Shown: positions 25,646 to 61,130 of the stretch, in pieces
Layout: every line of letters starts with the position of its first letter
Numbering within the stretch: the stretch's first letter is position 1
The notes under the pieces: generated by a model
What the model was told of the DNA's origin: nothing
What the model saw: the letters and a program-made list of their open reading frames with translations, nothing else
Database searches by the model: none
Translations under genes and position numbers: made by a program
Source of the DNA: Candidatus Kapaibacterium sp.
GTDB taxonomy: Bacteria > Bacteroidota > Ignavibacteria > Kapaibacteriales > UBA2268
Direction of reading: 5' to 3'
DNA length: 64,000 nucleotides
Assembly: GCA_963665665.1 (NCBI GenBank)
Contig: OY762428.1
Span: forward strand, 2,873,100-2,937,099

Positions 25646-25718
<73 letters not shown>

Positions 25719-25723
25719 CAAAG

Positions 25724-25889: not shown

Positions 25890-28800
25890 TTACCTCCCTC
25901 TCTTATTTCTCATATTTAAGCTTCTTTTAAGGGCGATATCAATATCACTGCCTTTGAGAGTTGTTTTAAGTTCCTGACCGGCAAGTATAGCCTTCAAACT
26001 TCTGATCTCAGAAAGTAGCTGAGAATTTGCTCCGGCTGATGCCATTTGGACAGTAGCTATCAACTGATCATCCCGAAATATCCATTCCCTGTTTCTACCA
26101 CCAAGTGTTGTTGCATCACCGATCAGTGCAAAAGTTGGCTCATCGATACGGCCTCCGGAAGAGAAGCTGAGAATGGAGCTGATTACAGGATCAGTAACTG
26201 CTTTTACAGCTGCATTGACTACCGCTGTGATTACAGGGATTGAAACAACATTAGCCGGGAAAGGCAGGGCTGACAGATATTCCATCGTTCCGGGAGAAAG
26301 AATCAGGTCAAGAACAAAGGCTGATGCTTTTGCCTGTAGCATACCTGCAAGTTGTCCGAAGAATTTACGCCAGTTCTCGGCTGCCGCTTCCGGATCAGCT
26401 GCAAATAGGTTTGTAAGGCTGTCTGTAACAGTAGTTTGCAGACCGCCTACTAATAAACCTATCGAATCAGCCTTTTGTGATAGAAGCGATTCTGTATTCT
26501 GTAACTGTGAGCTAAGTGATTCATAGGCTTCCCGGTCTGCTTTGCTGTCGAATATTGGTTTACCGGCTTCATCAAAGGCCTTGGCTTTTTCAGCTAACAA
26601 TGCCAATTGATCCTGTAAGGACTGTCTTTGTAAATTGAGGTTCTCTTCGTCTTTCCTTCGTTGCAGTTCCAGTTCTAATCCATTTCTTTGAGATTCAATA
26701 ATGGTTTGTTGTTTTGCATACTTTTCTTCTTTCTCAGCTCTTTTCTTTCTTCCGGATGCTTCAATCTCAGCTTTTCGCTTTTCAAACTCCTCGGCAGATA
26801 TAGCTTCCATGTCCCGCCATTTTTCCAGTTCTGCAATCTTTGCCTTTTCATCAGATTCAATTTTCTTCAGGGCATCATCTTTATCGGAACTGATTTTCTT
26901 CTCTCCGGCTGATGAATAAATCTCATTAAACCTGTTTAGCAGTTCTTCTTCCTTTTTGTACTTGTCCTCAATTTCCTTGATCCTGCCTTCTTCAAATTTC
27001 TTAAGCTCATCAAGCTTGGACTGATATATCCTGTCCTCAAGGTCTTTGATTGCCTGCATAGTCTCAAACTCTTCATTTTGAAGGTTCAGGTTCTGGTTTC
27101 TTAGCTCTCGCACCTTCAAACCATACTGAATCCTTATCCTTTCCTTTTCCTGTTCAGCATTTTCACCGGATACCTGTGCAAGCTCTTCATTCATCTGCCT
27201 GTTTAGTTCGATTATTTCATTATTACTGGATTTAATAGCATCTCTTAATCCGGATAGCTTGCTTTGATATTCCTCAACAACTCCCTCGTAAATATCTTCA
27301 TCCTTGATACCTATTGAAATTTCCCAATCAATTTTCTTCTGCTCAAGTTCTTTGAGTTTATCCTGCATATCAAGGTCATCAGCTTTGAGTTTCAGCTTTA
27401 GCTCCTGAATCTTTGCCTGCTCCTTAAGAATCTTCTCATTGAAATCCTGAATTACTGATCTAATTTCTGTTTTATCAGCTTCCTTTACTTTTGCATGGAA
27501 GATTATTTCACCATCCGATGTAACATCGCCTATCAGTTTCTTTGCTTTGAGGGCTTCAATCCATGCTAATCTTTGGTTCTTTATTGTCTCAAGTTGTTTT
27601 TGGTTTATAAGAAGTTCATCGTAGTCATCAGCTTTTCTTTCTTCTGCCAGTAATTTTTCTTTCTGAACATACTCATAATTCTGCATTTCCAGATCGAGGG
27701 ATTTTGTCTTAATATCAGCCTGTTCCTTTGCCAGTTCTAAAGCTGATTTGCCCTGCCTGACAATCAAACCTGCCCTGATCTGATTAAGTTCATCAATTTT
27801 GTCCAGATTTTTCTTTTCTTTAGCCTGATCTTTTAGGTTTCTGATAGCTTCATTATATTGTTCCTTCAGCTCTTTTCTTTCCTCATCTGACAAAGCTTTA
27901 TTCTGCAACTGTTTGTATATTTCATTAGCGGCAGAGAGTTGGGATTTCAGGTTCTTCTCAACATTCGACGTCGCATTATCCCATGCTTCGGCAAGCTTGT
28001 CAACAGCTGCAGCCTGAGCTTCGGCTTCTTTCTTGCTCTTTTCCTGAACATCGACAATATCCTCTGCTTTGTTTCTTAACTGATATAACTGTTTTGAGAA
28101 CTGCTGTTCTACTTTGTCAGGCAGTTTAATTTTATCAAATTCGATATCTATCTTTGCCCCATCCTCAAGGGATTTTGACATCTCCAAAGTCTGTGATTTT
28201 AGTTCCTGAGTTAGCTTGGAATATTTCAGCTTAATATCGCTAACATCTTCGCCTTTCTTCAATCCTTCAACGATCTGATTGGCAAGGTTCTCAGCTTCCT
28301 GAGATACTTTCTGATACAGCTCTACCTTTTCCTGTAAAGCTTCTGCAAAAGCATCCTGCTCGGATTTCAGCTTATTGGAGTATGATTCTTCATTGGCTTT
28401 GGTATATTCCTTAACTTTGTCAATATTCAGATCAATAGCCTGAACTACCTTGCCGTTTTCATCAATTATTTCTTTATATCCATTGACTGCATTCGGAACT
28501 TCTTTTGCCAGTTCCTTTGCAATATTATACTTTTGTATCTCAGTTTTTGCAGACTGGAACTTAGCCACAAGCTCGTCAAGTTTCTTATTCTTGTCCAGGT
28601 CATCTTTAAGTTCCATAGCGTTCTGTAGGGCAAAATCCATCTTTGATTCAGCTATAGTGGCATTGGCTTTGACCATAGCCCCGCTGATCGCTTTATTCAG
28701 CCGGTTTGAAAGTTCATTTTCAAATTCCTCGTCTCCGGAAATCCAATTAACAGGATTAAGATAATACTGAGCATAGTCCATCAGAACCGAGAATAGTTCC

Positions 28801-31058
28801 GGGATAGCCTCTACAAAACCAATAACATAATCCTTCGCTGTCCTGACTGCATATATCATTATCTGTACGCCTTTGGCAGCAGTCTCGAAGTAATTGCCAA
28901 TCAGCTTCAATACATCTCCAAGATTCTGAAATGTTCCGGCAGATTCATTTGAAACACCGGTCAGGCTCAGGAAAGTCTCAATGATAGTCGTTACATATGA
29001 AATGGCAATTTCAACCGGAGCAATAAGCATCTCAAATATCAGTTCACCGTATTTTATCAGATAGCCGACTACTTCTTCGCCCATATCAAGAAATCCCTGT
29101 ATTGCAGGCTGAGCCCTGTCCCAAAGTTCCTCTGCTGCATCGCCCCATCTTTCAAGTATCTGCTGTCCTTTTTCTGTCTTGGTCAGGAAGAGTGTTATAC
29201 CTGCCACTGCTGCAGCTGTTCCAAGCACCCAGGGATTTGTCATCATCGGTCCCAGCTTTGCAAGAATACCACCGCTCGACTGCATCTGTGCCGATAATCC
29301 TTTTAGTATCCCTCCGGTTTTATTGGCATTTTTGAATAGCGAAGTGAACTGTCCGGAAATTCCGGATAGTTGAGCTTTGATTTTATCTGCAGGAATGATA
29401 TTTCCTATCTGTCCGAATGTCATTACCATCGGGGCTATCTGATTTGATAAGGCTAACACTTGAGTAAAACCATCGCCGACAGCTCCGAAAAATTTAAAGA
29501 ATCCTGCTTCTATCTTATTTAAAACTCCCTGTACTTTGACACCAATCCCTTCATTTGCAATATCAAAAGCCCTCTGGGTAGAACCGATAGCATCAGTGGT
29601 ATAAGTGCTGAGAACATCTGCAAATTTCTCAGCATTTTCTCCTGACAAGGCAAGAGCGGCACCAGCAGCTTCAACAGAAGAGAAGACCTGGTTAGCTCTT
29701 AATCCTGTCTCAGACATTGCCAAACCGAGTTTTTCAAGAGATACCTGTAAACCGTCTTTCTGCAATGAATCAAGTGAAACGCCAGCCTTTTCCATAATTG
29801 GCGCTAATGTAGCTCCCGGTTTGGCAAGTTCGACAAGGGCAGCACGAATCTGTGTTGTCGCCTGGGCAGTTGGAACGCCCTGCTGTGTCATAGTGGCAAT
29901 GGCAGCCGTTACCTGCTCGAAAGATACCCCGAAAGATGCGGCTGTTGGAATCACATTGGATAATGAAGCATTGAGTTCGGGAATTGTGGTAACACCATTG
30001 TTCACAGTGTTGAAGAGGATATCAGAATATCTTTCTGCCTGATCCATAGATTCGCCATAGGCATTCAGGTTGGCAGCCAGTGATTTTATTGCAGCGTTAG
30101 TATCGGTAAGGCCTGCAACGGCAAGCTTCGAAGCCTGCTCAACAAAACCCATACCTCCGGCAACATCAGCAATACCGTTGGTAACTTTAATAGCTCCTGC
30201 TGAGATAGCATTATAAATACCTTCGGTAACACCGGCAACGGTATCAGGAACTCCGGAAGCAAGTTCTATAGCTTTATCCCGGAACTCTTCAAAGTTCTTT
30301 ACACCGAGTGTTCCGATATTGCGGAGTTGTTTATCAAATTCCTTGTAGGGTCCGATGAATCTTTCAAAGGCATCTGTGATCTGCTGGACTCCCTGAACAG
30401 CAAGCCCGAATGTAGCCATCTTCTCGCCAAAGCTTTTCCCTGTGTTCTGGGCAGTCATTCCCATGGATTTGAGTTTTTTCTCTGCCTGGGCTATTTCCTG
30501 TTCCAGTTTATTATAGGCATCAGAGCCTTGCTTGCCTGAGTTTTTGAGAGCCTGTAAAGCTAATTTCTGCTTGCCGATAAGCTGTTCTGTTTCCTGCTTT
30601 GCCTGAAAGAATGAATCTGCAAGCTTCTCAATTTCCTGATTGAATTTATCGGCATCAAGATTTTCGAGAGCTATGTCAATTTCAGCAATATTCTTATCAA
30701 TTCCGGATTGTTCAAGCTCCTGAAAAGCTTTTTCAATATCCGACAGATCAATTTTGTCAATCTCTTTCATGGCGGATTCAATGTCTTCAAGAGCTTTTTG
30801 TGCTTCATCGGTATTCAGGTCAACATCAAGGGCAGAGAGGACTTTTTCGAGGTCTTCAGCTCCGTTTTCTGCTTCCTGAAGGAATTGAACAAGTTGTTTG
30901 ATTCCCTGCTTTGCTTCGGAACTGTTAAAATCTATATCTGGATTGATATTGCTGAGGATATTTTCTACATCCTTTGCCAGCTTTTCTACTTTGGATTTGT
31001 CTGATTTCAGGTCAACCAGAAAATCCAGCACAACTTGAAAATTCTTCTGCATTGCCAA
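25890..31058 (-). CDS. phage tail tape measure protein (1722 aa)
   Basis: TP901-type TMP core (LRNIGTLGVKNFEEFRDKAIELASGVPDTVAGVTEGIYNAISAG), long coiled-coil middle and hydrophobic segments. An ATG at 31052 is a likely alternative to the TTG at 31058. Confidence 0.9.
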   Translation of the reverse strand: MAMQKNFQVVLDFLVDLKSDKSKVEKLAKDVENILSNINPDIDFNSSEAKQGIKQLVQFLQEAENGAEDLEKVLSALDVDLNTDEAQKALEDIESAMKEIDKIDLSDIEKAFQELEQSGIDKNIAEIDIALENLDADKFNQEIEKLADSFFQAKQETEQLIGKQKLALQALKNSGKQGSDAYNKLEQEIAQAEKKLKSMGMTAQNTGKSFGEKMATFGLAVQGVQQITDAFERFIGPYKEFDKQLRNIGTLGVKNFEEFRDKAIELASGVPDTVAGVTEGIYNAISAGAIKVTNGIADVAGGMGFVEQASKLAVAGLTDTNAAIKSLAANLNAYGESMDQAERYSDILFNTVNNGVTTIPELNASLSNVIPTAASFGVSFEQVTAAIATMTQQGVPTAQATTQIRAALVELAKPGATLAPIMEKAGVSLDSLQKDGLQVSLEKLGLAMSETGLRANQVFSSVEAAGAALALSGENAEKFADVLSTYTTDAIGSTQRAFDIANEGIGVKVQGVLNKIEAGFFKFFGAVGDGFTQVLALSNQIAPMVMTFGQIGNIIPADKIKAQLSGISGQFTSLFKNANKTGGILKGLSAQMQSSGGILAKLGPMMTNPWVLGTAAAVAGITLFLTKTEKGQQILERWGDAAEELWDRAQPAIQGFLDMGEEVVGYLIKYGELIFEMLIAPVEIAISYVTTIIETFLSLTGVSNESAGTFQNLGDVLKLIGNYFETAAKGVQIMIYAVRTAKDYVIGFVEAIPELFSVLMDYAQYYLNPVNWISGDEEFENELSNRLNKAISGAMVKANATIAESKMDFALQNAMELKDDLDKNKKLDELVAKFQSAKTEIQKYNIAKELAKEVPNAVNGYKEIIDENGKVVQAIDLNIDKVKEYTKANEESYSNKLKSEQDAFAEALQEKVELYQKVSQEAENLANQIVEGLKKGEDVSDIKLKYSKLTQELKSQTLEMSKSLEDGAKIDIEFDKIKLPDKVEQQFSKQLYQLRNKAEDIVDVQEKSKKEAEAQAAAVDKLAEAWDNATSNVEKNLKSQLSAANEIYKQLQNKALSDEERKELKEQYNEAIRNLKDQAKEKKNLDKIDELNQIRAGLIVRQGKSALELAKEQADIKTKSLDLEMQNYEYVQKEKLLAEERKADDYDELLINQKQLETIKNQRLAWIEALKAKKLIGDVTSDGEIIFHAKVKEADKTEIRSVIQDFNEKILKEQAKIQELKLKLKADDLDMQDKLKELEQKKIDWEISIGIKDEDIYEGVVEEYQSKLSGLRDAIKSSNNEIIELNRQMNEELAQVSGENAEQEKERIRIQYGLKVRELRNQNLNLQNEEFETMQAIKDLEDRIYQSKLDELKKFEEGRIKEIEDKYKKEEELLNRFNEIYSSAGEKKISSDKDDALKKIESDEKAKIAELEKWRDMEAISAEEFEKRKAEIEASGRKKRAEKEEKYAKQQTIIESQRNGLELELQRRKDEENLNLQRQSLQDQLALLAEKAKAFDEAGKPIFDSKADREAYESLSSQLQNTESLLSQKADSIGLLVGGLQTTVTDSLTNLFAADPEAAAENWRKFFGQLAGMLQAKASAFVLDLILSPGTMEYLSALPFPANVVSIPVITAVVNAAVKAVTDPVISSILSFSSGGRIDEPTFALIGDATTLGGRNREWIFRDDQLIATVQMASAGANSQLLSEIRSLKAILAGQELKTTLKGSDIDIALKRSLNMRNKRGR

Positions 31059-31091
31059 CTCTTTCGTAAATATGGCAATGTATTTGATAGA

Positions 31092-31120
31092 TGTGTATGA
31101 TTACAGGTATTTAATGCTTG
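31092..31120 (-). promoter_or_regulatory. phage promoter-like bipartite element, copy A (weakest)
   Basis: Transcribed strand: CAAGCA-N17-TACACA. It shares AATACCTGTAAT with copies B and C and lies about 35 nt upstream of the tape-measure start. Confidence 0.35.
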
Positions 31121-31139
31121 AATTAAATACAATTTATTC

Positions 31140-32432
31140 ATGATTATAATAAGAAAGATGAATAAACCTATACAGCTGTGGGAATATGATGAAATAACTG
31201 ATCCAAATTTACTTGAGATTCTTAAAAAAGAAATAAAAAAGAAAGAGTCTCATTATAAGGATTATTTTACTTTATCTTGGGGAAGCACTTTTAAACCCAA
31301 TGGATACTGTGGATCTTTTGCATTCAATGGAGAAACTTATAGCATCTTACCAAAAATTGAAGGAAAAGGAGATGATGACTGGGATGATGTAAGGAACCTC
31401 TCCTATCTTACTTATATGTTTCTAAAAGCCGAGAATATTGATTTAAAAAATGAAGACATTAGCAATGCTATGAATAGGGAAAGGCTTTCACTCTATGATG
31501 TCTTAATAAAAATATTTACGAACAAATTGCTACCAGAACTGCAAAAAGGTATTCATCGTGAATACGTAAGCAAACGTGATAATGTTAATAAGATCAAAGG
31601 CCGTTGGCTAGTTAGAAAGCATATTACAAAGAATTACTTCAATGAGAAAATATATTGTGAATTTGATGAGTTTTCCGAAAATAACCGGTTGAACAAGTTG
31701 TTTCTTTATGCCGCAAAAGTACTTAAACCACAAAGCCAAGAAACCAGGAAAGACTTGAGAAGAATTGAGTTGGTTCTTGACGAAGTTGAATATGAAGTAA
31801 TAGATGTAAAAAAATTCAATTATTCATTTCATCGAATGAATAAACGCTTTGAGAAATCAGCAAACCTTGCGTTATTATTACTTCGTTATTTACTCCCAAA
31901 CTTTTCTGGTGGGAGTAAGAATAGTTTTATATTCCTATTTAAAATGCACGATGTATTCGAAAGATTCATTGCTAATATTCTTAAGGATTTGGAGCCTGAG
32001 TTGGACGACAGAGAAGTATTAATTCAGCCCCCAAAATATGATAAAGATAACGATTTAAATATTAAACCTGATATGGTAATAAAGAAAGATGATCGGGTAG
32101 AATTAATTATTGATACGAAATATAAGCTTTTTACAGGTAATCCTACACCAGGAGATAAATATCAGATGTATGCTTATGGTATGAGTTATGATTTTCAAAA
32201 TAATAGAAATCGCTCTATTCTTCTTTTGTACCCTGAGAAAGAAGGGAATGAACAAAAAGAAAGAGATTTTCATTTACAAGGAAATGTTGATGAAAGCCAT
32301 GTTGATCTTTATGTCGAGAAGATAAATGTTAAGACTGATAGTAAGATTGTAGGTTTTGATCAATATATTAGTGATATAAAAGATAGATTGAAAGAAATTA
32401 TTGAATCACAAATAAATAGGTATAAAAAATGA
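31140..32432 (+). CDS. mcrC: McrC-like PD-(D/E)xK nuclease subunit of a type IV (McrBC) restriction system
   Basis: 430 aa. The C-terminal nuclease motif IKPDMVIKKDDRVELIIDTKYK fits D..D-x-K. Four-nt overlap (ATGA) with the following McrB-like gene. Confidence 0.75.
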   Translation: MIIIRKMNKPIQLWEYDEITDPNLLEILKKEIKKKESHYKDYFTLSWGSTFKPNGYCGSFAFNGETYSILPKIEGKGDDDWDDVRNLSYLTYMFLKAENIDLKNEDISNAMNRERLSLYDVLIKIFTNKLLPELQKGIHREYVSKRDNVNKIKGRWLVRKHITKNYFNEKIYCEFDEFSENNRLNKLFLYAAKVLKPQSQETRKDLRRIELVLDEVEYEVIDVKKFNYSFHRMNKRFEKSANLALLLLRYLLPNFSGGSKNSFIFLFKMHDVFERFIANILKDLEPELDDREVLIQPPKYDKDNDLNIKPDMVIKKDDRVELIIDTKYKLFTGNPTPGDKYQMYAYGMSYDFQNNRNRSILLLYPEKEGNEQKERDFHLQGNVDESHVDLYVEKINVKTDSKIVGFDQYISDIKDRLKEIIESQINRYKK

Positions 32433-34147
32433 AATTTGAAGAAAAAGTTTTACTGCTTATAAATAGTGGTAATTATAATTATTTGGCTAATAGTGATGAA
32501 TTCTATTTCGAAAAAGCAGTGGAGCAGTTTCGAACATTTATGAAATTTGAAATAGATGATAATGAAATCAATGAATTAATTAATGAATTTAATGAAATAA
32601 AAGGATTCAAAGAATATTTAGATCAACTCGACAATGATTCAATTAAGTATAAACTTTTTAACCTTTTAGGTAAAGTAATTGCTCATATTGATTATCATGC
32701 TGCAAATAAATATGAATTAAACAGTTACAATGACAAGAGGGTTATTGCAAAATCAATGGTGAGACAAACCGACTGGATTAACCATTTACTAAAATATAAA
32801 TTATCAAACAACTTAAATGTTTTTTCAGAATCCACTAAAAATGCAGTTCTTTATTTAATGAACCCAGCTGAGAGAATAACCATTCTATCTGATAATCAAA
32901 GAAAAGCTATTTCAAAATCAATTCTTAAAACAACATATAACTCTGAATCATTTGACCAGGAGATTATCGAGAAAATCGGATTCCCCAAATCAAAAATTAT
33001 CAATAATGATAACATTGGCTATATAACTTCAATAATGCTCTATTCTGATTTGAAAAATTATTGGCAACCTGATGAACACAGTAATAATTTACAACTTAAT
33101 AACGACATAAAAAAAGAAAATCTCTATCCAAAAAATATCATTCTATACGGCCCTCCTGGCACTGGTAAAACTTATCTTCATAAATATTTGATAAATCAAC
33201 TTGAAAATTCTAAATCTGATTCTGATGTTTTCAAAGTAATTGATTCTCTTAAGAGTGTCCCAAAGGGTGAAAACTCTTTTATTGATGAGCTTGAAGATCG
33301 TTACGATTTTGTAAGTTTTCATCAGTCATATTCATATGAGGACTTTGTTGAAGGTTTTAGACCTGTCGCCCCAAAAAAGGTAAATATTAAAGAAAATGAC
33401 AGTGATGAAGGTAATACTTCAAGTTTAAATATAGAATTAAGAAATGGTATTTTCAAAAAAATGGTTGATAAGGCTAAAAATAAAAAAGAGAATTATTATC
33501 TGGTAATTGATGAGATTAACCGCGGTAATATTTCTAAAATCTTTGGCGAATTAATTACCTTAATTGAAGAAGATAAAAGGTTGGGAGCTAAAAATGAATT
33601 AAAAGTGTCATTACCATATTCTTCTGACAAGAACGAAATATTTAAAGATTTTGGAGTACCTAAAAATCTATTTATAATCGGAACTATGAATACAGCCGAT
33701 AAATCTATTGCTCAAATAGATGTTGCTTTAAGACGTAGATTTACTTTTGTCAGGATTGATCCCAGGCCGGATTTAATTGAGCCAAATCCTATTTCTAAAG
33801 AGGGATGGAAAAATTTAGATATTCGAGAAGAATATAAGTCAAATAATGATGATAGGAGCTATAAATGGACTACTGATCCAAAAGACCTACAAGAATGGTT
33901 TATCAACCTCAATATATTTATTGAAAGTAAATTAGGAAAAGACTATCTAATCGGCCATAGTTATTTCATGAAAGTTGACTCTGATCAAGAGTTACAGTTT
34001 GTTCTTAAATACAAAATCATACCTCTCATGGAAGAATATTTCTTTAATGAGGATAAAAATACTATTGAAGATATTGCGAAGTATTGTAGCATAAGATTGA
34101 TAGAGAAAGAATTAACAAATCAAAATGATGATAAGAGTCCTGACTGA
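32429..34147 (+). CDS. mcrB: McrB-like AAA+ GTPase subunit with uncharacterised about 225-aa N-terminal domain
   Basis: Walker A ILYGPPGTGKTY, Walker B LVIDEINRGNISKIFGELITLIE, McrB signature IIGTMNTADKS and ALRRRFTF. Confidence 0.85.
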   Translation: MKFEEKVLLLINSGNYNYLANSDEFYFEKAVEQFRTFMKFEIDDNEINELINEFNEIKGFKEYLDQLDNDSIKYKLFNLLGKVIAHIDYHAANKYELNSYNDKRVIAKSMVRQTDWINHLLKYKLSNNLNVFSESTKNAVLYLMNPAERITILSDNQRKAISKSILKTTYNSESFDQEIIEKIGFPKSKIINNDNIGYITSIMLYSDLKNYWQPDEHSNNLQLNNDIKKENLYPKNIILYGPPGTGKTYLHKYLINQLENSKSDSDVFKVIDSLKSVPKGENSFIDELEDRYDFVSFHQSYSYEDFVEGFRPVAPKKVNIKENDSDEGNTSSLNIELRNGIFKKMVDKAKNKKENYYLVIDEINRGNISKIFGELITLIEEDKRLGAKNELKVSLPYSSDKNEIFKDFGVPKNLFIIGTMNTADKSIAQIDVALRRRFTFVRIDPRPDLIEPNPISKEGWKNLDIREEYKSNNDDRSYKWTTDPKDLQEWFINLNIFIESKLGKDYLIGHSYFMKVDSDQELQFVLKYKIIPLMEEYFFNEDKNTIEDIAKYCSIRLIEKELTNQNDDKSPD

Positions 34148-34231
34148 AGAGATGTTTTATCAAAAATTGAGCAACATCATAATCCAAATGAATCAAGAAA
34201 AAAACTTACTATACTAAATAATCAATTTAAA

Positions 34232-34507
34232 TTGGAATATGGATCCCCAAAAAGGGAATTTCGAAGTAAAAAGTTTGACAATGAAAACGAATTAATAATA
34301 TATTTAGCATACTTTCTCGAAAATGCTTATTGGGAAGAGATTAAAAGTGATAAACAAAATAAGACAAAATTTGAAATAAAACTCTCAAAAAATGAAGTTT
34401 TTGGAACAGGTTATTATGGATCTAAAGTTGATATTAATAAAACGAAAAAAGGTTTCAAAGCTGTATTAAATAGTCTAAAAATAATTGGATTAGACATGAA
34501 AAGGTAA
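34232..34507 (+). CDS. hypothetical protein, in the same frame as mcrB
   Basis: 91-aa ORF with a TTG start. The frame is open back to the mcrB TGA at 34145-34147. No family recognised. Confidence 0.4.
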   Translation: MEYGSPKREFRSKKFDNENELIIYLAYFLENAYWEEIKSDKQNKTKFEIKLSKNEVFGTGYYGSKVDINKTKKGFKAVLNSLKIIGLDMKR

Positions 34508-34523
34508 ATTAAAATAAACAGTT

Positions 34524-34549
34524 AGCAGAGCTTCGGCTCTGCTTTTTTA
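34524..34549 (+). terminator. rho-independent terminator closing the McrCB island
   Basis: AGCAGAGC-ttcg-GCTCTGCT followed by T6. Confidence 0.75.
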
Positions 34550-34879
34550 TTTACTAATCATCTGCTCAATACTATTCATCCCCTCCAAAAACAAACTCTG
34601 CCTAACTTCATTGTGTTTAGTAACATCCCCCTTAGCCAGAGCAGTAAGATACCAAATACCGATTCTCGCCCGGCTGAGACGGTGATAAAGTTCTCCGGGA
34701 TTGAAGCAGTTCTCTATTTTTTCCTGCTCCTCGATCAGCCTTCTTTGTCTAAGCTCCCTTGTACTGTCTTCTGAAAAATCGGCAACAACATTTCTATCCC
34801 GTTCTTCTTTCTTTCGCCTTGCAAGATCGCTGATACGAGAGGTTTCTTCCCGATACCGGTAAAAAAATCCGATACGCAC
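34547..34879 (-). CDS. -1 frame extension of the tail assembly chaperone (GT-like)
   Basis: Overlaps the 3' 145 nt of 34735..35208 in the -1 frame, with a slippery run at 34861-34867. The predicted fusion is about 220 aa. Confidence 0.65.
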   Translation of the reverse strand: MRIGFFYRYREETSRISDLARRKKEERDRNVVADFSEDSTRELRQRRLIEEQEKIENCFNPGELYHRLSRARIGIWYLTALAKGDVTKHNEVRQSLFLEGMNSIEQMISK

Positions 34880-35208
34880 TCCTTCAGGTTATTCAGGTGC
34901 TTAATAGGAAGTGATTTTATGAATTGTTCGGTTTCTATTTCTGCTTTGTCCTTGTTGAAAGGCTGTTTGGCATTATCTTTCATTTCTCTAAGCAGGTAAC
35001 GGGCAACAATAGTCAGCCATTCCGCCCCTCCGGATTTTACAATCTGCCTGAAAGATTCCGCTCCGGCCTGCAACTGATTATACTTGAATTCCCCGGCTTC
35101 CCGGGCAAGTTCCGCCTGCTCAATAGTCAATTGGTAGAAGTCATATTTATATTTCTTTCCTTCATACTCAAATGTTTTTGCCTCGATCGGCTTGTGTTCT
35201 TCATTCAT
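34735..35208 (-). CDS. tail assembly chaperone (G-like, zero-frame product)
   Basis: 157 aa. It overlaps a -1 frame ORF and, in phage gene order, sits upstream of the tape-measure gene. Confidence 0.7.
   Translation of the reverse strand: MNEEHKPIEAKTFEYEGKKYKYDFYQLTIEQAELAREAGEFKYNQLQAGAESFRQIVKSGGAEWLTIVARYLLREMKDNAKQPFNKDKAEIETEQFIKSLPIKHLNNLKECVSDFFTGIGKKPLVSAILQGERKKNGIEMLLPIFQKTVQGSLDKEG
34861..34867 (-). promoter_or_regulatory. -1 programmed frameshift slippery heptamer T_TTT_TTT
   Basis: The zero frame reads GAT TTT TTT ACC and the -1 frame reads GGA TTT TTT TAC. Both frames were verified by hand against the two ORF translations. Confidence 0.65.
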
Positions 35209-35711
35209 TAAAACAGTACTCCTAACAGTGCTTTAGTAAAATAGTTAGTTCTGATTATCAGCCTCGGGCGGTATTCAATGCTCTCGATCTCAAGATTCAG
35301 AACCGGGTTCCTCAGTTCTATCCACATTCCCTTGTTCTTACTTGTATTGATGTATCCAGATGACGGTGGATTAATGCTCGAATCGCCAAGCATGAGAATG
35401 AAATGATAATATTTAACTCCCGGCGACCAGATGTTGTTCAATTCCTGTATTATGTCAGGCTCTCCATCCGGAACATTAATAAGAAGATTATGGGCAATAT
35501 ATACAGTTACTGTGATTATGTATCCCAGAGTCCTGTTGTTCCTGTAATGATCCTGTCTCGTGACCGGAACAATGCTATATGAACTTTCGGCCTCAATATT
35601 ATGTATATATATTATATCCTCGATTCCGTCGCCATGCTTACAAATCCGGACACCGTTTATCGGTATCAGATTGATTTTTCCGGCAATATCTCTGAAATTT
35701 ATCGTCGCCAT
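35208..35711 (-). CDS. phage tail structural protein (tube-like position), hypothetical
   Basis: 167 aa, immediately upstream of the chaperone pair. Call rests on position only. Confidence 0.4.
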   Translation of the reverse strand: MATINFRDIAGKINLIPINGVRICKHGDGIEDIIYIHNIEAESSYSIVPVTRQDHYRNNRTLGYIITVTVYIAHNLLINVPDGEPDIIQELNNIWSPGVKYYHFILMLGDSSINPPSSGYINTSKNKGMWIELRNPVLNLEIESIEYRPRLIIRTNYFTKALLGVLF

Positions 35712-35713
35712 AA

Positions 35714-36124
35714 TTATACCGGCTCCGCATAGCTGAATAAAAATGATATTTCCCTTAGTTCCTTGATCTCTTCGATATAGCTGAGAGGAAACCGCCCGGA
35801 TTCAGTCATAACCTGCACATAATCGCCCCAAGTGTCACTTTTATTTAATGCTATATACTTGAAGCCGGCTGACCAGAAATCCTGCAAGAATGCCAGTATA
35901 TCGGTATCTATTTCATCTGCAGATATGATCACTTCAACCTCTTTATGCTGATACAGTAGATGATTGAACTTTCTGCCATTAAGAAGGATTCCCTGTTCTT
36001 CGGAAGTATTGACAATTGGATCAGCACATTTCACTGTCTCGAATACATTCTGATTTGCTCCCTCTTCATCAAAAGTAAGACTGCTTAATTTGGTATCGCT
36101 ATATTTTAAAGCTATCTCTATCAT
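35714..36124 (-). CDS. phage structural protein, hypothetical
   Basis: 136 aa. Tightly packed within the tail operon, with a 4-nt overlap with the upstream gene. Confidence 0.4.
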   Translation of the reverse strand: MIEIALKYSDTKLSSLTFDEEGANQNVFETVKCADPIVNTSEEQGILLNGRKFNHLLYQHKEVEVIISADEIDTDILAFLQDFWSAGFKYIALNKSDTWGDYVQVMTESGRFPLSYIEEIKELREISFLFSYAEPV

Positions 36125-38556
36125 GCCTGTACCAGTCCGCTTTCAAATGGGAATTCAGTGATATCAAGGATAAAGCTCTTCTCGGAATCTATTTTGCCAA
36201 GACAGAGTATCATGTCTTCGTTTGCTGTTGGCGTTTCAAGTATTTCCTCAGTAATATTAGTTTCGATTAGGTTAGTCCTTGCAAATATCTGTCCACTGAT
36301 ATTAGTAAAACTGTATCCATCGTAATATACCCGGCCGCTTATCTGGACAATTATTTTATCTCCGGTAGTTCCATTCTCTTTAGCAATGCCGATTGTCTTA
36401 TTCTGATATCCGCTATAGCTCAGGGATTTTGCCAGTTTGCCATTATCCAACAGCATTACAGCATCTCCGGCAAGGATTTCCTCGTTATCCTCCACATCAT
36501 AACTTTCGATAACAACCGAATCATCTGACAGAAAACCGAACTGATTGCTTGTGAACATGAAGAGTGGCAATTGCCCTTCATCGCCGTCCCACCAGCCAAA
36601 AGCAAAACGCTCGAGAGAATGCAGTTTGAGCTTGGTTTCAGGTTTCTGCAGGTTGATTTCAATTCCAACGACCACATAATCCCGCACCACCTGTTCCTCA
36701 ATCCATGTCCCGTCATACCTTTTTACTGTTTCAGCAAGTTTGATTTTCGAGCCAAGAGATATATTCTTCCATGAAGGATTCGAGCCGTCAGCATTCTTTG
36801 AAAAGCCGTTCCAGAAAGGCACTGTCAGACTGTACTCAGTTTCATAATACTGCTTGTCCCTTGACAGAATGTAATTCACATACTTTGTCAGGGAATCGAA
36901 ATCCATATCGCTGTCATTTATCTTAGCGAAAACCTTTGATGCAGGCCTCCAGACCGGAGTTGTACCGAGCCTGCCTATCTGGTTTGCTTTGATCGGGGCA
37001 GTCTTCAGATAGATTCCTGAATGAAGCCTTTCAGTTGCAGCGCTGTTGCCATTTCCGGGAGCATTCGCAAGGCTATATAGCCCGTATGTATCCCAGGAAA
37101 CATTATTCTGTGTTATATTCATGGGAGCAGTTTTAAAGGCATGACCACCATAGCTGTTAACCGCATCAAGAGTGTGGGTAATTACTGAAGTAGTGAGCAG
37201 AAGCCTTTCTGACTCAATGCCTTTTTTCTCTTTTGCATACTTCCTTTCCTGATCGGCATCCTGAAATTTCTTTGATGGAAGCGGTTCGTTGGTATTGGCT
37301 TTATTGATAATCTCATCAAATTCATCAACGGCCAAGTTGTTTCCCAGCCCATAAAATTCATTCGACTCCTTAGTAATCACCGAGCTTGTATCAAAACCTG
37401 CTTCCTCAGCTCCAATAAGATAAGTATATTCATCCTCTACAAGCCCTTTTCGGGACTTAAATTCTATGTTGATGCTTGTTCCTGATGTGTATGATATAAA
37501 CAGATAACAGGCAAATGACCGGGCAATCTCAAAGAGCAGGTCTGAAACATTGTCGATATTCTTGAAGGAATAGGATTTCTCGCTCGAAACCTGATTCTTC
37601 TGCCATTCCTCTTGCTGAGTGTTACCCAATGAAGGATCTATCATCTTCCGGTGAATAAAAGGTGCGCTCCAATCTACCCCGGAATCTGAATTTGAGAGCT
37701 TCAATTCAATTCGTACCGTCTGTTCTGTCTTTACTTCCGTTACATCAATATTAAATTCTTCCTCTAATTCAAAAGATACAGGTGAAGACTGGATACCAAG
37801 TGATTTTTCAACAAGGTTCAATGCCATATTCGTATTTGTTAACTGGGCAATTATCTCGGAAGCTTTATCCAGGTAAAGGTCAATTACCTTATAAAGATTA
37901 CCAAGATGGCAGAAGTAAGCATAAGGAGTAACGACGCTGGAAGTTGAATAGGCAAGCCTGTAATTGAAAATATTCTTTATCGATGACCAGTTCTCAGCTT
38001 CAAATCTTTCATAAATATTTGAAACCGGAGTTCCGGACATATCTTCAATATTTCCGGTCAGCTTAACCTGATCGAGAATGGAAATATCGAAGCTGTATGC
38101 AGAAAGCTTGTACTCCCTTTTTGGATTGACAATATACTCGTATTCCTGACCTTCCCAATATTTATCATCCCCACTTATTTTATTACCTATTTTTCCAATA
38201 AAAAGCATATTGGTAAGGCTTGCAGTCTCACCGAAGAACAAAGCACAGTAGCGGTTTACCTTGATATTCGCTGAATCAAGAACAAAATACATAGCTTTGA
38301 AATCATCTTCACTCTGGCAGGTCAGATGAGAAACGGAAAAAGGCAGTTCGTCAATAGCATAACTGCCTTCCTCAGTATTCAGATCTTTTTTTACAGATTC
38401 AAGCATGAAAATATCAGTCTCTGAACCAATATCCTGAAATAATTCAGTATAGGTATCTGAAACCGCAAACAGTACCGATTGAACGCCGAAAAGGTATTCT
38501 CTATATTGATATTTCTGGAAGAATCTCATAGAAAGCCAACTAATTTCTTTAATCAT
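36121..38556 (-). CDS. large phage tail protein (811 aa; sheath-like position), hypothetical
   Basis: First gene after promoter-like copy B. No motif recognised. Confidence 0.4.
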   Translation of the reverse strand: MIKEISWLSMRFFQKYQYREYLFGVQSVLFAVSDTYTELFQDIGSETDIFMLESVKKDLNTEEGSYAIDELPFSVSHLTCQSEDDFKAMYFVLDSANIKVNRYCALFFGETASLTNMLFIGKIGNKISGDDKYWEGQEYEYIVNPKREYKLSAYSFDISILDQVKLTGNIEDMSGTPVSNIYERFEAENWSSIKNIFNYRLAYSTSSVVTPYAYFCHLGNLYKVIDLYLDKASEIIAQLTNTNMALNLVEKSLGIQSSPVSFELEEEFNIDVTEVKTEQTVRIELKLSNSDSGVDWSAPFIHRKMIDPSLGNTQQEEWQKNQVSSEKSYSFKNIDNVSDLLFEIARSFACYLFISYTSGTSINIEFKSRKGLVEDEYTYLIGAEEAGFDTSSVITKESNEFYGLGNNLAVDEFDEIINKANTNEPLPSKKFQDADQERKYAKEKKGIESERLLLTTSVITHTLDAVNSYGGHAFKTAPMNITQNNVSWDTYGLYSLANAPGNGNSAATERLHSGIYLKTAPIKANQIGRLGTTPVWRPASKVFAKINDSDMDFDSLTKYVNYILSRDKQYYETEYSLTVPFWNGFSKNADGSNPSWKNISLGSKIKLAETVKRYDGTWIEEQVVRDYVVVGIEINLQKPETKLKLHSLERFAFGWWDGDEGQLPLFMFTSNQFGFLSDDSVVIESYDVEDNEEILAGDAVMLLDNGKLAKSLSYSGYQNKTIGIAKENGTTGDKIIVQISGRVYYDGYSFTNISGQIFARTNLIETNITEEILETPTANEDMILCLGKIDSEKSFILDITEFPFESGLVQA

Positions 38557-38579
38557 TAACTGGCAATCTAAATGTTCAG

Positions 38580-38617
38580 TATGTATTTTTACAGGTATTG
38601 AGTGTCAATAGGAAATG
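38580..38617 (-). promoter_or_regulatory. phage promoter-like bipartite element, copy B
   Basis: Transcribed strand: CATTTCCTA TTGACA CTCAATACCTGTAAAAA TACATA. Confidence 0.55.
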
Positions 38618-38741
38618 AAAGAATCAATGAAATGGGGATACAAAATGATGGCATTTCTATCCTTTTACCAGATAATAGTATCATAAAGTTAGTAATCTCG
38701 ATGATATATAGTGCAAAATACTACTATTATGGTTTAACCAT

Positions 38742-39641
38742 TTATTGACGTTCTGGAGGTAAAATTATATCTCCTTCATCATAAGATGCTATTGACAAAA
38801 CATCTTGAATATAAGATTGAAATGGAGGTGGATATAGCTGTGTGGAAGTTAAATGTTCATATAAAGATAGCATTAATAAAATTAATGCATGGGCATCACA
38901 ATCTTCTTTATTGAACTTGAAAGAGACTAAACCAGACTTAGGGTCTTTTTTTTCGTAAGATTTAATGGCTATCGGACCTAAATTTATGCCGTTTTTGATA
39001 AATTCCAATTTTGATCTAACAATAATTTTTCCATCTAAACAGCAAATAATATTAGGAATTAATTCTTTGTTTACATTTGTAAATTCGCTTTTTAAAGAAC
39101 CTTTATCCATATCATTCGAATCGCCAATAATCACAAAATGAAATAAATCATTCTGTCTTTCACCTTTTCTATTTATTGATAAATTATCTCCAAGACTAAC
39201 TCCATTTCCAACATATGATAAGGGAACTGATTCTCTTGCCATACCGTTCATAACTTGATTAATTGCATTAACAAAGTTTTCTAAATACTTTTTGGATTTA
39301 TAATAAGTTGATTTGATCTCACCAATAGCATATACAGATTCATATGGAAAATATTCAGTCCCATTTTCACTATCATAAAGAATCTGAGTTGTCGTAGAAT
39401 CGGCAATAATTATATCAAATTGAGGGCTAACGGATAAATTCTTATCCACTATGTGGCCATGCCCAATGTAGAATTTTTGGGGCAATCTTTTTTTCAAAAA
39501 CTTTCTAATAGGTATTTCAAGTTCATCTCCACTAGCATCGATGTCACCAGTATTATGAATGATTTTTGATGAATTTCTTGCTGATTTTATTCTCTCCACT
39601 TCTTGTTTGTAGATATTTTCTATTGGAAATTTTTTCATCAT
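38742..39641 (-). CDS. DUF6602-like PD-(D/E)xK-fold protein (cargo gene)
   Basis: GDELEIPIRKFLKKRLPQKFYIGHGHIVDKNLSVSPQFDIIIADS..FPYESVYAIGEIKSTY matches my recollection of the DUF6602 pattern (S-Q-DIIIyD ... IEVK). AT-rich, flanked by 185- and 135-bp spacers. Confidence 0.55.
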   Translation of the reverse strand: MMKKFPIENIYKQEVERIKSARNSSKIIHNTGDIDASGDELEIPIRKFLKKRLPQKFYIGHGHIVDKNLSVSPQFDIIIADSTTTQILYDSENGTEYFPYESVYAIGEIKSTYYKSKKYLENFVNAINQVMNGMARESVPLSYVGNGVSLGDNLSINRKGERQNDLFHFVIIGDSNDMDKGSLKSEFTNVNKELIPNIICCLDGKIIVRSKLEFIKNGINLGPIAIKSYEKKDPKSGLVSFKFNKEDCDAHALILLMLSLYEHLTSTQLYPPPFQSYIQDVLSIASYDEGDIILPPERQ

Positions 39642-39776
39642 TAAACTTTCAATTCATTATAATTATAAATTTATCAATATAAAATATAGAAATGTTTGGA
39701 ATTTTTCAATTTATATAACAAGAATCTTTATCTCATATTCCTTATTTACTAGTAAATGTATAAAAATTTAATATTT

Positions 39777-40499
39777 CTATACATAAGTAATATTCGACAC
39801 AACCGCCACATCTCCGTCAAGCAACTGCAAAGCCTCTGCAGAGACAATATCAGGCGGAAGAATACCTTCTACATCAAGCCCTGTACCGCCAAGTTTCCAT
39901 GTGATTGCAGTAAATAAACCTACAGCGGTCAGATCAGCTTCAACAAGCCCTGAATTCTTATAGGAAACAAATGTCATTGTCAGGCTTGCCGGGTTGTTGT
40001 TCAGCTGCTGCTCAATGTCATTGTTGATCTTGCCTATCATGTGGATATAGCCGTCCGGCTTTCTGAGTGTTGCATCAGTCCTTGCTTTGTGAGAATAACC
40101 TGTACCAATAGTTATCATAAATAAAGCTCCCAGTTTTCCCTGTAATTCTTTCAAAAATGCAGTCCATGAATTGGATTCCATCGGAGCCTCATTAGCCACG
40201 AGAGTTATCTCGCCTTTGCTTGTAGCATCACTTGAAGAATCAGCCGGTGTAATATCAGTTTCATCAATACCGGACAGAATGAGATTCGTTTTCGGGAAAC
40301 GAATAATAGCCCCATCAGAGCGGTTGATATCAATATTATCCGAACCGGCGGAATCAGAACCCGGTTTCATCAGCTTATATGTTGAAGACTGCAGGTTGTT
40401 GAATTTCCACAGCTCAGTTATTGTATTGCTCTCAATCAGATGTACCCAGCCAAAGGGCGAGCCAGTCAGGATTATCTTTTTATCAGTTGTAGTCGGCAT
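39777..40499 (-). CDS. phage structural protein (possible major tail protein), hypothetical
   Basis: 240 aa in the tail/fibre operon. Confidence 0.35.
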   Translation of the reverse strand: MPTTTDKKIILTGSPFGWVHLIESNTITELWKFNNLQSSTYKLMKPGSDSAGSDNIDINRSDGAIIRFPKTNLILSGIDETDITPADSSSDATSKGEITLVANEAPMESNSWTAFLKELQGKLGALFMITIGTGYSHKARTDATLRKPDGYIHMIGKINNDIEQQLNNNPASLTMTFVSYKNSGLVEADLTAVGLFTAITWKLGGTGLDVEGILPPDIVSAEALQLLDGDVAVVSNITYV

Positions 40500-40512
40500 T
40501 TCAAACTCCTAT

Positions 40513-43906: not shown

Positions 43907-43944
43907 CTTGTATTATTACAGGTATTGAGTGTGGGTAGGGAGTG
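43907..43944 (-). promoter_or_regulatory. phage promoter-like bipartite element, copy C
   Basis: Transcribed strand: CACTCCCTA CCCACA CTCAATACCTGTAATAA TACAAG. Confidence 0.6.
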
Positions 43945-44085: not shown

Positions 44086-45447
44086 CTACTTTAAAAATTT
44101 AAATTCTACCCTTCTGTTTTTTGCTTTGCCTTCATCAGTTTTATTATCTGCAATAGGTTTAGATTCTCCATATCCAATAGCAATAAGATTATTTTTGTTA
44201 ATACCTTTTTTGATTAAATAGTTTACAACTGATTGGGCCCTTGATTGTGACAAACGTTTGTTGTAGGAGTCGCTGCCATCACTATCAGTATGACCGGAAA
44301 TTTCTACCTTAACATTTGGATATTCCTTAAGCAATTCAACTAATCTATCGAGTTCGGAATATGATTCGGGCCTCAAATCCGATTTATTATATTCAAAAAA
44401 GATATTGTTTACAGTAATACTCCCATCCCAGGGTTTCTTCATTATAATGTCTTTAGTTATGGTAGTTTCTTTCTTTTGACCTTTCAACATTGCATTATCA
44501 GATATGCTTGAGTATCCCTTCTTTTGAAAATAAAATGCATAATTCGAGCCTATAGGAACTTTGAATTCATAGCTCCCATCAGACGGCGAACTATTTGTAG
44601 TTCCTATTTCAACATTTTTATAATTCTCGCTCATCAGCTCCCACCCTACTTTAACTTCCAAAGGCGATCCGTTCGTCGTTTTTACAGTTCCTTTTACGGT
44701 TGCAAAGACAGGCGTTCCTTCGCCAAAAAGCTTTAGTATTGCAGGCTGCGTCTGGTTTTCATAACTTACGATTATTCTGCCGTCCGTCCTTCCGTCCTTC
44801 ACGGGAGCAAAACCGATATTCAATTCTTTGGTTTCATTCGGAGCCAAAGAAAAAGGAGTAAATTTATCGGTTAAAGAAAACTGCGAACCGGACTCGTTAT
44901 CGATCGAAATTGAAGTAATTTTTATCGGACTTGTACCTATATTTTTTATCGCTTTCGATATAGCCCTGTCCGATTGAGAAAATATCGGGACTTTGCCAAA
45001 ATCGACAATTCCGGAATAAACTTCGATTTTCGCCTCGACGCTCTCGCCCGAGATTTTATAGATCAGCGTATCGGCCTGCGTTACTATAACGACGTCGGCC
45101 GTTTTCATTCCTGAGCTTTGCGGATTAAAGCGAAACTCGATATCCCTGCCAGAATTCGACGGAATAGAAAAGGGGAACACATACGTCAAAAGCCGGAAAT
45201 CATTAGCATGATCTCCGGCAATAGTAATATTATCAATCCTAACAGCAAACTTTCCCGTATTTTGTAAATAACCGGCAAAAACGGAATCCTTTTTTGTATT
45301 ATTCAATACTTGCCCGAAATCAATATCCATTGCCGACGCTTTGGGAACGATAATTGAAAGTCGATTGTCTGATTTGTCCTGGATTTGAGCTAAAGTCTCA
45401 ATATGTAGAGACAACAGCAAAACAATATATAAAATTAAATATTTCAT
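44086..45447 (-). CDS. secreted OmpA-family protein with Ig-like and CarboxypepD_reg-like domains
   Basis: Signal peptide MKYLILYIVLLLSLHIETLAQ. The C-terminal OmpA domain reads EISGHTDSDGSDSYNKRLSQSRAQSVVNYL..GYGESKP..NRRVEFKF. Confidence 0.8.
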   Translation of the reverse strand: MKYLILYIVLLLSLHIETLAQIQDKSDNRLSIIVPKASAMDIDFGQVLNNTKKDSVFAGYLQNTGKFAVRIDNITIAGDHANDFRLLTYVFPFSIPSNSGRDIEFRFNPQSSGMKTADVVIVTQADTLIYKISGESVEAKIEVYSGIVDFGKVPIFSQSDRAISKAIKNIGTSPIKITSISIDNESGSQFSLTDKFTPFSLAPNETKELNIGFAPVKDGRTDGRIIVSYENQTQPAILKLFGEGTPVFATVKGTVKTTNGSPLEVKVGWELMSENYKNVEIGTTNSSPSDGSYEFKVPIGSNYAFYFQKKGYSSISDNAMLKGQKKETTITKDIIMKKPWDGSITVNNIFFEYNKSDLRPESYSELDRLVELLKEYPNVKVEISGHTDSDGSDSYNKRLSQSRAQSVVNYLIKKGINKNNLIAIGYGESKPIADNKTDEGKAKNRRVEFKFLK

Positions 45448-45471
45448 TCTTATATCCTTAATAATTTCAAA

Positions 45472-47553: not shown

Positions 47554-47633
47554 GATAATTTCCAATCTTATTTCCCAAAATAATTCAAATTAACATATTT
47601 TTGGGAAAAAAAAAAACGAGATTGTTTTTCAAC

Positions 47634-50588: not shown

Positions 50589-50707
50589 AAATTATCAAAA
50601 AATACGTATTTATACGGATAAAAATACCAAGTTCTTGGTATTGATTTTTTGATTAACATTTGTCACTTTGTAGTTATCAGTTTTTTTAATTCTTGAAGGA
50701 ATATAAC

Positions 50708-59998: not shown

Positions 59999-60084
59999 TT
60001 GATAGTGGACAGTTGAAAGTGGACAGTGAGAAGAGAATAAAAGAAAAAATTAACTATCAACTATCAATTATCAACTTTCAACTG
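59997..60084. repeat. heptad-word inverted arrays, site 3
   Basis: agTTGATAG TGGACAG TTGAAAG TGGACAG TGAGAAG, then an A-rich 19-nt spacer, then TTAACTA TCAACTA TCAATTA TCAACTT TCAACTG. Confidence 0.8.
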
Positions 60085-60155
60085 AAATTCGGCGTAAATA
60101 CTTGATAAATATAGGTTTACATACAATAATAAAATAGAGTAACCGTCTTAAATAT

Positions 60156-60443: not shown

Positions 60444-60448
60444 TTTGA

Positions 60449-61129: not shown

Positions 61130-61130
61130 T

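Follow-up and report, generated by a model that had tools for sequence, protein, structure and literature searches.

The tail operon of a prophage in Candidatus Kapaibacterium sp. is interrupted, between its tail assembly chaperone genes and its tape-measure gene, by two restriction genes on the opposite strand, which raises the question of what such a cassette does there and how the phage accommodates it. The locus lies within 64,000 nucleotides (nt) of contig OY762428.1 (positions 2,873,100 to 2,937,099), a stretch that we call the window as a whole and whose numbering is used throughout. We consider it probable that mcrC and the mcrB that follows it form a self-contained McrBC-family (type IV-like) restriction cassette, carried as a moron by a temperate siphovirus that is integrated at tRNA-Phe and has a cargo slot at this point. 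Morons are conceived as insertions with their own promoter and terminator and a deviant guanine plus cytosine (G+C) content, which protect the lysogen (PMC3594210).

The McrC-McrB cassette and its relatives

The identity of both proteins, which a sequence-only reading had deduced from short motifs, is borne out by profile searches. McrC matches the Pfam McrBC family (PF10117) with an expectation value (E) of 1.7e-52 over profile positions 3-318 of 318, NCBIfam McrC (3e-23), and McrC of Thermococcus gammatolerans (PDB 6ut5_G, 1.5e-21), to which its PD...D-x-K catalytic block is aligned; it consists of an N-terminal DUF2357-type region and a C-terminal PD-(D/E)xK nuclease. From residue ~235 on, McrB matches the McrB proteins of T. 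gammatolerans (PDB 6ut3, 1.2e-59) and E. coli (PDB 6hz4, 1.1e-37), and its motor has a Pfam AAA_5 match and a precomputed McrB_lid match (PF28529). All the motif boxes quoted in that reading were found: in McrC, PDMVI at residue 310 and IIDTKYK at 323 (P310-D311 ... D325-T326-K327, encoded by 32067-32120), and in McrB, GPPGTGKT at 241 (Walker A, G241-T248), DEINRGN at 361 (Walker B, D361-E362), MNTAD at 420 (the NxxD signature, N421-D424) and then RRRFTF at 435 (R435-R437). Judged by these matches, the cassette is a complete McrBC-family system with all catalytic motifs present.

In the McrB tree, the NxxD signature motif marks the canonical GTPase group and NxD the CoCoNuT branch (PMC11090510). 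Because MNTAD is of the NxxD form, the McrB of the window falls in the canonical group, and membership of the CoCoNuTs (NxD variant with coiled-coil fusions) is ruled out. Membership of the restriction-modification systems of the LlaJI, LlaI and BsuMI type, which are operons of three or four genes with a neighbouring methyltransferase, is likewise ruled out, as there is no adjacent methyltransferase and the nearest candidate, itself borderline, is ~26 kb away.

The two genes are intact and translationally coupled through an ATGA overlap at 32429-32432. Downstream of them lie a small open reading frame (ORF) and an intrinsic terminator, AGCAGAGC-TTCG-GCTCTGCT followed by T6 (34524-34549), whose hairpin energy of -15.7 kcal/mol (z = -4.5) was equalled by none of 200 shuffles and whose T-tract shares bases with the stop of GT (34547-34549). 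The whole block is antisense to the minus-strand structural operon and flanked by the chaperone pair and the tape-measure gene, and each of its parts stands at the coordinates first assigned to it. Translation of the tape-measure gene likely starts from an ATG at 31052, which is two codons into the ORF as counted from its TTG. The 3488-nt interval 31059-34546 holds mcrC, mcrB and the orphan ORF only, with no methyltransferase within or adjoining the cassette; neither direct nor inverted repeats of a transposon-like kind were found flanking it, and a search against Rfam returned a tRNA as its sole match.

The cassette is compositionally foreign. Its interval has 28.8% G+C, compared with 41.7% in the tape-measure gene and 40.6% in 34547-38556, and is the lowest-G+C 3.5-kb stretch of the window; the earlier hand counts of 12 in 60 at 32401-32460 and 32 in 60 at 29101-29160 proved exact. 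Coordinates are collected in the table, in which lengths are in amino acids (aa).

Features of the locus, and what occupies the chaperone/tape-measure junction in the window and in related phages (L numbers)
Feature	Position or locus	Strand	Remarks
tRNA-Phe	25646-25719		170 nt from tape-measure stop codon
Tape-measure gene	25890-31058	-	1722 aa; PF10145, E 1.6e-26
Divergent control region	31059-31139		81 nt between tape-measure start and mcrC start; ATAC-repeat array inside
mcrC	31140-32432	+	430 aa; PF10117 match
mcrB	32429-34147	+	572 aa; PDB McrB matches
mcrB, N-terminal domain	32429-33082	+	residues 1 to ~218; all-helical model
mcrB, AAA+ GTPase motor and C-terminal tail	33125-34147	+	PDB, Pfam, motifs
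Open frame continuing the mcrB frame after its TGA	34148-34507	+	119 codons
Small ORF, orphan	34232-34507	+	91 aa; TTG start
Intrinsic terminator of cassette	34524-34549	+	8-bp G+C-rich stem, UUCG loop, T6
Tail assembly chaperone pair G/GT	34547-35208	-	G 34735-35208; -1 frame T 34547-34879
Junction: McrC-McrB cassette	window only
Junction: empty	L001/L017/L028, L008, L024, L032, L012, L011		20-90 nt between genes
Junction: probably empty	L013		chaperone only 29% identical; GT end not mapped
Junction: RosmerTA-like HTH-M78 (helix-turn-helix) gene	L003, L002, L007, L018, L016, L026		PADLOC RmrA, 3.7e-53
Junction: complete AbiEi/AbiEii pair	L009	antisense	PADLOC, 2e-73 and 4e-120
Junction: two unknown genes	L010		243 aa and 218 aa

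That mcrC precedes mcrB had been singled out as an inversion of the usual order. The order is indeed as described, but it is shared with the closest homologues, is not a peculiarity of this locus and does not belong to the defining traits of McrBC systems. Genomic context was looked up for eight McrB relatives: C stands before B in 5 of the 5 nearest (among them P0002, P0003, P0004 and P0016; McrB 38-56% and McrC 37-55% identical to those of the window), whereas all three that are more distant (P0015, P0019, P0024) have B before C. Since the nearest relatives have one order and the distant ones the other, the inverted arrangement is a trait of the subclade and not an accident of the window locus.

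The members of this subclade resemble the cassette in gene order and, in P0002, P0004 and P0016, in the helical N-terminal domain of McrB. They differ in being chromosomal, in a defence island or a hydrogenase maturation (hyp) operon, and in having downstream genes of their own (a 152-aa protein; a DUF1016/YhcG nuclease); P0003 (L015) is without the N-terminal domain, and P0004 has an insertion in its motor. The closest pair, with an McrC 46% identical to that of the window, is in the chromosomal defence island of a 3.65-Mb assembly (L005, P0002). In Aliarcobacter butzleri and A. skirrowii (L006, L033), the sources of P0004 and P0016, the pair lies inside the hyp operon, between hypD and a hypE-like (AIRS) gene, and the DUF1016/YhcG nuclease gene accompanies it in this cluster. 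The McrC-McrB pair is thus itself mobile in the subclade. A scan of viral contigs for McrB relatives found none. Farther away, Aequorivita sinensis (L034) has a 968-aa McrB (P0024) with the same helical domain, whose gene, together with that for McrC, immediately follows a pair of genes for C5 DNA methyltransferases; the arrangement resembles the methyltransferase-associated McrBC branch mentioned in PMC11090510.

The chaperone/tape-measure junction

The identification of the G/GT chaperone pair is supported by its architecture, that is, by the frameshift site and the position between the tube-like and tape-measure genes. The slippery sequence GAT TTT TTT is in frame (T7 at 34861-34867, minus strand) and a -1 ORF overlaps; this T_TTT_TTT heptamer and the overlapping -1 ORF are kept in 12 of the 12 relatives examined. 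The G ORF has no profile match in Pfam or PHROG, the T-frame ORF has one weak match, to a PHROG of unknown function (E 0.00039), and PHROGs and Pfam identify neither the tube-like gene nor the 811-aa protein encoded nearby.

With the chaperone protein as query, related phages were found in viral contigs, metagenomes and metagenome-assembled genomes, labelled mostly as Ignavibacteria, Kapabacteria and Chlorobiota. Their G proteins are 64-96% identical to that of the window, gene order from capsid to tape-measure gene is conserved, and most genes encode proteins of 55-85% identity; a megablast search with 25890-40500 against GenBank phages gave no match. In these relatives the junction is either empty or holds other cargo (see table), the HTH-M78 gene having a PIN-like partner beside it wherever the contig reaches far enough. 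In the empty L001, L008, L024 and L032, G/GT and the tape-measure gene are separated by ~20-40 nt. On this comparison the chaperone/tape-measure junction is a recurrent cargo slot in the lineage. The proposal that the cassette is cargo rather than phage core is borne out by its departure from backbone composition and by its absence from the junction in related phages. The accompanying view of an insertion at a junction that is usually tightly coupled holds as regards the insertion but not if coupling is taken to mean that inserts are kept out, the site being a hotspot.

The closest relative (L016; chaperone 96% identical) is near-identical in DNA up to ~20 nt before the GT stop codon and then continues with RosmerTA-like cargo, from which it follows that the cassette was gained or exchanged recently. 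Its right-hand break-point is the very end of GT, and the lack of terminal repeats fits recombinational exchange rather than transposition. In three relatives with an empty junction (L001, L008, L012), the GT stop codon lies, by eye, within a short hairpin followed by a T-run, so a terminator or attenuator at this point may be ancestral.

Some relatives depart from these patterns. At 1124-3987 of L010, the cargo lies between a full G/GT pair and a second, partial copy (the 3' end of G, and T), and this duplication is either the footprint of a recombinational insertion or an assembly artefact. In L021, L004 and L031 the junction is empty, and an antisense island interrupts the tape-measure gene after ~178 codons (~8709-12985 in L021, where the C-terminus of the tape-measure protein resumes at 12743). 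The island encodes an N6_N4 DNA methylase (7e-64) and several unknown genes, and the arrangement looks like a disabled prophage. In L022 (827-2161) and L027 (8527-10746), GT is followed directly by large genes in antisense; they encode secreted repeat proteins of 444 and 739 aa that bear motifs such as GGKTW, and no tape-measure gene was found in what is left of either sequence. Either they are a further kind of cargo, or a truncated prophage may have its edge here.

Upstream of the tape-measure gene, inside the divergent control region, is an array of ATAC repeats on the minus strand, AATACCTGTAATC-ATACACATCTATCAA-ATACATTGCC. Its core 11-mer, AATACCTGTAA, at 31101-31111 (minus strand), is repeated exactly at 38589 and 43916, so the remark in the sequence-only reading that the tape-measure gene has its own copy of a phage promoter-like element holds. 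With at most one mismatch allowed, AATACCTGTAA has 8 matches where 1.46 are expected, and 0 of 100 shuffles reach that number. The copies at 38589 and 43916 are upstream of the 811-aa and 529-aa structural genes, and each of the three is directly downstream, in the direction of the operon, of window DNA that is not present in L001, L003 and L008: the McrC-McrB cassette, a 299-aa gene (38742-39641) and a gene pair (44086-47565). In L003, L007, L018 and L009, all of which bear cargo, a related element, AATACCTGTAC...TTACTTGTAA, precedes the tape-measure gene by 65-105 nt; the loci with an empty junction have none before that gene. The simplest reading of this distribution is that the element is a putative promoter, or a site bound by a regulator, at which the structural operon would start anew behind every insert; in this way the tape-measure gene may stay expressed although the cassette has been inserted in front of it.

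The second of the three insertions (38742-39641, minus strand, 29.8% G+C) encodes a 299-aa DUF6602 protein that matches the PADLOC PD_DExK model (1.4e-23) and NucC-type endonuclease models, and splits the genes for a 240-aa and the 811-aa structural protein, which are adjacent in L001, L003, L008 and L009. With it the tail module has two defence-like morons, and the element copy at 38589 comes after this second one. The third (44086-47565, minus strand) consists of a 697-aa gene with VWA and Fib_succ_major domains and a 453-aa gene, with a backbone-like G+C content of 39.4%; both genes are absent from relatives, whose 95-aa and 529-aa genes adjoin, and the copy at 43916 is just downstream. An antisense ORF of 272 aa (50693-51511, plus strand, 29.5% G+C), an orphan without Pfam or PADLOC match, separates the major capsid gene from the head gene that comes next; these flanking genes abut in L001, and no copy of the element follows the ORF.

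To the left of tRNA-Phe are ordinary cellular genes, and the McrB protein is recorded on a 5.46-Mb contig; the phage is therefore an integrated prophage with the tape-measure gene as its last gene. Two IMG/VR contigs of relatives end ~1.3 kb after the tape-measure gene. As that gene is terminal, the genes for the distal tail must be placed at the opposite end, and neither they nor the right end of the prophage fall within the window. Also in the window are a gene for a 1134-aa protein with 26 WG_beta_rep repeats (54547-57951, minus strand; Pfam 1.4e-300), with 32% G+C and a strong negative G+C skew, and, in the host part, a gene for a Schlafen AlbA_2/HATPase_c_4/winged helix-turn-helix protein (7276-8625, plus strand) beside a 2841-aa ORF (8906-17431, minus strand).

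Function, specificity and rival explanations

By homology with the McrBC systems of E. coli and T. gammatolerans, McrB would assemble into GTP-bound hexamers, and McrC would insert into the McrB ring, stimulate GTP hydrolysis and bring the PD-DxK nuclease, with DNA cleavage expected when translocating complexes stall. A putative promoter of its own would have the cassette transcribed in the lysogen, where it would restrict incoming foreign DNA, probably DNA with a base modification that host and prophage lack, to the gain of both. With the insert in place, transcription from G/GT would be kept from reading on into the tape-measure gene, the expression of which is probably restarted by its own copy of the ATAC-repeat element.

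Several results weigh against this account, most of them concerning the N-terminal domain of McrB. Residues 1-225 have no match in Pfam, and a 44-sequence profile of the domain finds no PDB chain at E < 0.1. An AlphaFold2 model from the same 44-sequence alignment is all-helical and confident (predicted local distance difference test [pLDDT] 93.0, predicted template modelling score [pTM] 0.88), and Foldseek retrieves nothing for it at E <= 0.001 from the PDB or from the viral structures of BFVD. Thus, none of the known reader classes (DUF3578/ADAM, YTH, EVE/PUA, SRA, B3-like) was matched in the domain by Pfam, PDB or Foldseek searches. About half of 248 retrieved family members have a further 95-430 residues in front of the helical domain, and a close relative, P0003, consists of the motor only and is without the domain. 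A sigma-70 scan for an mcrC promoter gave 22 sites where 23.1 were expected, which is chance level, the consensus used perhaps not being that of the host. Lastly, the 91-aa ORF has no homologue but itself in an index of 5.8 billion proteins.

Because no significant Foldseek match was found (best E-values 3.0 in PDB and 0.66 in BFVD, template modelling scores [TM-scores] <= 0.29), the fold is unlike the solved McrB reader domains. The structural check thus leaves the domain as unrecognised as the sequence-only reading had called it. The role of modification reader given to it there is an assumption only, since so many family members bear diverse extra N-terminal domains. These additional segments fall into at least 46 unrelated groups, mostly without Pfam matches, and in their sequence diversity they look more like the pattern expected of swappable specificity modules. 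As P0003 has no N-terminal domain at all, target recognition may work differently in this clade. The helical domain may be a conserved adaptor, or it may bind DNA directly; in the McrB of the window it is the only candidate for a DNA-contacting module.

The domain is widespread and defines a large McrB subfamily: an exhaustive profile search returned 408 cluster representatives at E <= 1e-3, 364 of them at E <= 1e-10, and it sits directly before the motor in nearly all of the best McrB relatives. Its conserved residues include D88, K94, N98, Y100, D102, R104, W116, K124, N195, Y205 and W212. DUF8426 (PF28530) was considered as its family and set aside, the window protein having no such precomputed match; in P0015 the DUF8426 match is listed after the AAA match, which suggests an insertion in the motor, and this rejection is not certain. 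The recurrence of weak Foldseek entries (4ejy, 3i0x, 2jhj and a Pandoravirus methyladenine glycosylase) pointed to a likeness with HhH-GPD DNA glycosylases, which was rejected as noise (probability <= 0.09, TM-score <= 0.28). A full-length McrB model built by AlphaFold2 from seven sequences had a pLDDT of 46.6 and was discarded.

After the TGA of mcrB, its frame continues for 119 codons without a stop, while the other five frames contain 5-19 stops, and 0 of 20,000 shuffles of the stretch stay open over 120 codons. Because this is far beyond shuffle expectation, the stretch is, or recently was, coding. The 91-aa ORF in it has no match in Pfam, PADLOC or PHROG, a single NCBIfam row is noise (E 0.0096; 15.1 bits, cutoff 457), and the ORF is unlike the gene downstream of mcrB in L005 or any other protein or locus fetched. 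It could stand as a small gene in its own right, extend McrB by read-through, or be what a nonsense mutation has cut off from the end of a fusion; a separate gene is favoured, because McrB homologues end where the McrB of the window ends.

If the cassette does cleave DNA, it could be a restriction enzyme for unmodified or site-specific targets, like LlaJI, LlaI and BsuMI, against which a methyltransferase elsewhere in the prophage gives protection. The McrB motor matches PADLOC models labelled 'Type II restriction enzyme' (9e-16), P0024, a distant member with the same N-terminal domain, directly follows two methyltransferase genes, Dcm stands beside McrBC in phage AcaML1, and site-specific non-canonical McrBC homologues are described in a preprint (bioRxiv 10.64898/2026.08.31.748284). 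The prophage also has a methyltransferase-like cluster at 58147-62000, which had been taken for DNA-modification genes of the phage. The cluster exists, with a generic S-adenosylmethionine methyltransferase, a 3'-phosphoadenosine-5'-phosphosulfate-reductase-like protein (PHROG, 8e-60) and a ParB-like protein, but it argues only weakly for self-modification: the sole DNA-methylase-like match of the prophage, an N6_N4 methylase fragment, is borderline (26.6 bits, cutoff 26.7) and covers the C-terminal half of the profile only. Neither the cassette nor the five nearest McrC-McrB pairs have a methyltransferase adjacent, and a cassette that cut unmodified DNA would kill when moving alone between genomes. 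We therefore judge this explanation unlikely, and prefer a type IV-like moron.

The same features bear on whether the cassette works at all, and for whom. A decaying or silent passenger, intact through recent acquisition or inactive for want of a reader domain, would be in keeping with an McrB that has no reader domain of a known class, with a promoter scan at chance that leaves no promoter assigned, and with a stop between mcrB and the in-frame downstream ORF that could be a recent nonsense mutation. Long ORFs decay fast in sequence of 28.8% G+C, however, and here both large ORFs are full length relative to their homologues, every catalytic residue is present, and the ATGA overlap and the terminator are preserved, which makes a passenger somewhat less credible again than a cutter of unmodified DNA. 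Least credible of all, in our view, is that the cassette serves the phage, by degrading host or competitor DNA in the lytic cycle or by stabilizing the prophage as an addiction module. It is located inside the late operon, and type IV systems can kill cells with an altered methylation pattern, according to two papers (PMC2993543, PMC3141261); yet its antisense orientation and own terminator set it apart from late transcription, and other cargo at the slot (AbiE, RosmerTA-like) consists of defence or toxin-antitoxin systems typical of morons expressed in the lysogen.

A more far-reaching proposal combines two parts: that the helical domain of ~215 residues recognizes DNA by a new fold (or senses another feature of invaders) and is the sole specificity determinant where no extra module is present, and that the structural operon is a multi-slot cargo carrier in which a portable ATAC-repeat element restarts the operon after every insert. 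This element could, in addition, be where crossovers exchange the cassettes, as a functional analogue of the promoter/stem-loop cassettes by which genes are shuffled in T4-type phages. That both parts hold together we regard as doubtful, although less so than any of the rival explanations. Being widespread, with a fold that is confidently modelled and unmatched, the domain is a concrete target for learning what this McrB subfamily recognizes.

Comparison with known systems

The cassette resembles the structurally characterized McrBC systems of T. gammatolerans (PDB 6UT3-6UT8) and E. coli K-12 (6HZ4, 6UT6, 7VSR) in its AAA+ motor with Walker A and B, NxxD and RRRF blocks and lid, in a partner McrC of DUF2357-type and PD-DxK make-up, and in adjacent, co-oriented and overlapping genes. 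It differs from them in the order C then B, in being prophage-borne, in the orphan ORF that follows in frame, and in an N-terminal fold unrelated to that of either McrB, which is DUF3578/ADAM in E. coli and YTH-like in T. gammatolerans.

Its position has a precedent and is in fact the archetypal one for a moron: gene 15 of phage HK97, for which the term was coined, likewise has the tail chaperone genes on one side and the tape-measure gene on the other (PMC3594210). In HK97 the extra DNA encodes a single small inner-membrane superinfection-exclusion protein, whereas the cargo of the window comprises 3.5 kb and 2-3 genes, is antisense, and encodes a nuclease-motor system. McrB-like matches are present in 21 of 50,697 GenBank phage records, including Acidithiobacillus phage AcaML1, likewise a temperate phage with annotated McrB and McrC (in the order Dcm-McrB-McrC). 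There, however, B precedes C, Dcm is adjacent, the genes come after the tail and lysis genes beside transposases, and similarity is confined to the motor (32% identity over 53% of the query). Both McrBC systems in phages and morons at the chaperone/tape-measure junction are already known, and the cassette leaves views of McrBC systems or of morons unchanged. Its main interest lies in the widespread but unmatched N-terminal domain and in the ATAC-repeat element, which goes with cargo in the structural operon.

P2-like phages and P4-like satellites have defence hotspots, and prophage-mediated defence is known from mycobacteriophages. The slot described here shares with these a fixed position in the backbone at which isolates carry alternative defence systems; it differs in lying inside the tail-assembly block of a siphovirus of the Ignavibacteria type and in that its cargo comes with a copy of a regulatory element of the backbone, placed before the structural gene that follows. 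It thus provides a clean natural example of McrCB, AbiE, RosmerTA-like and unknown genes swapping at a single site of a tail block, in phages of poorly studied hosts.

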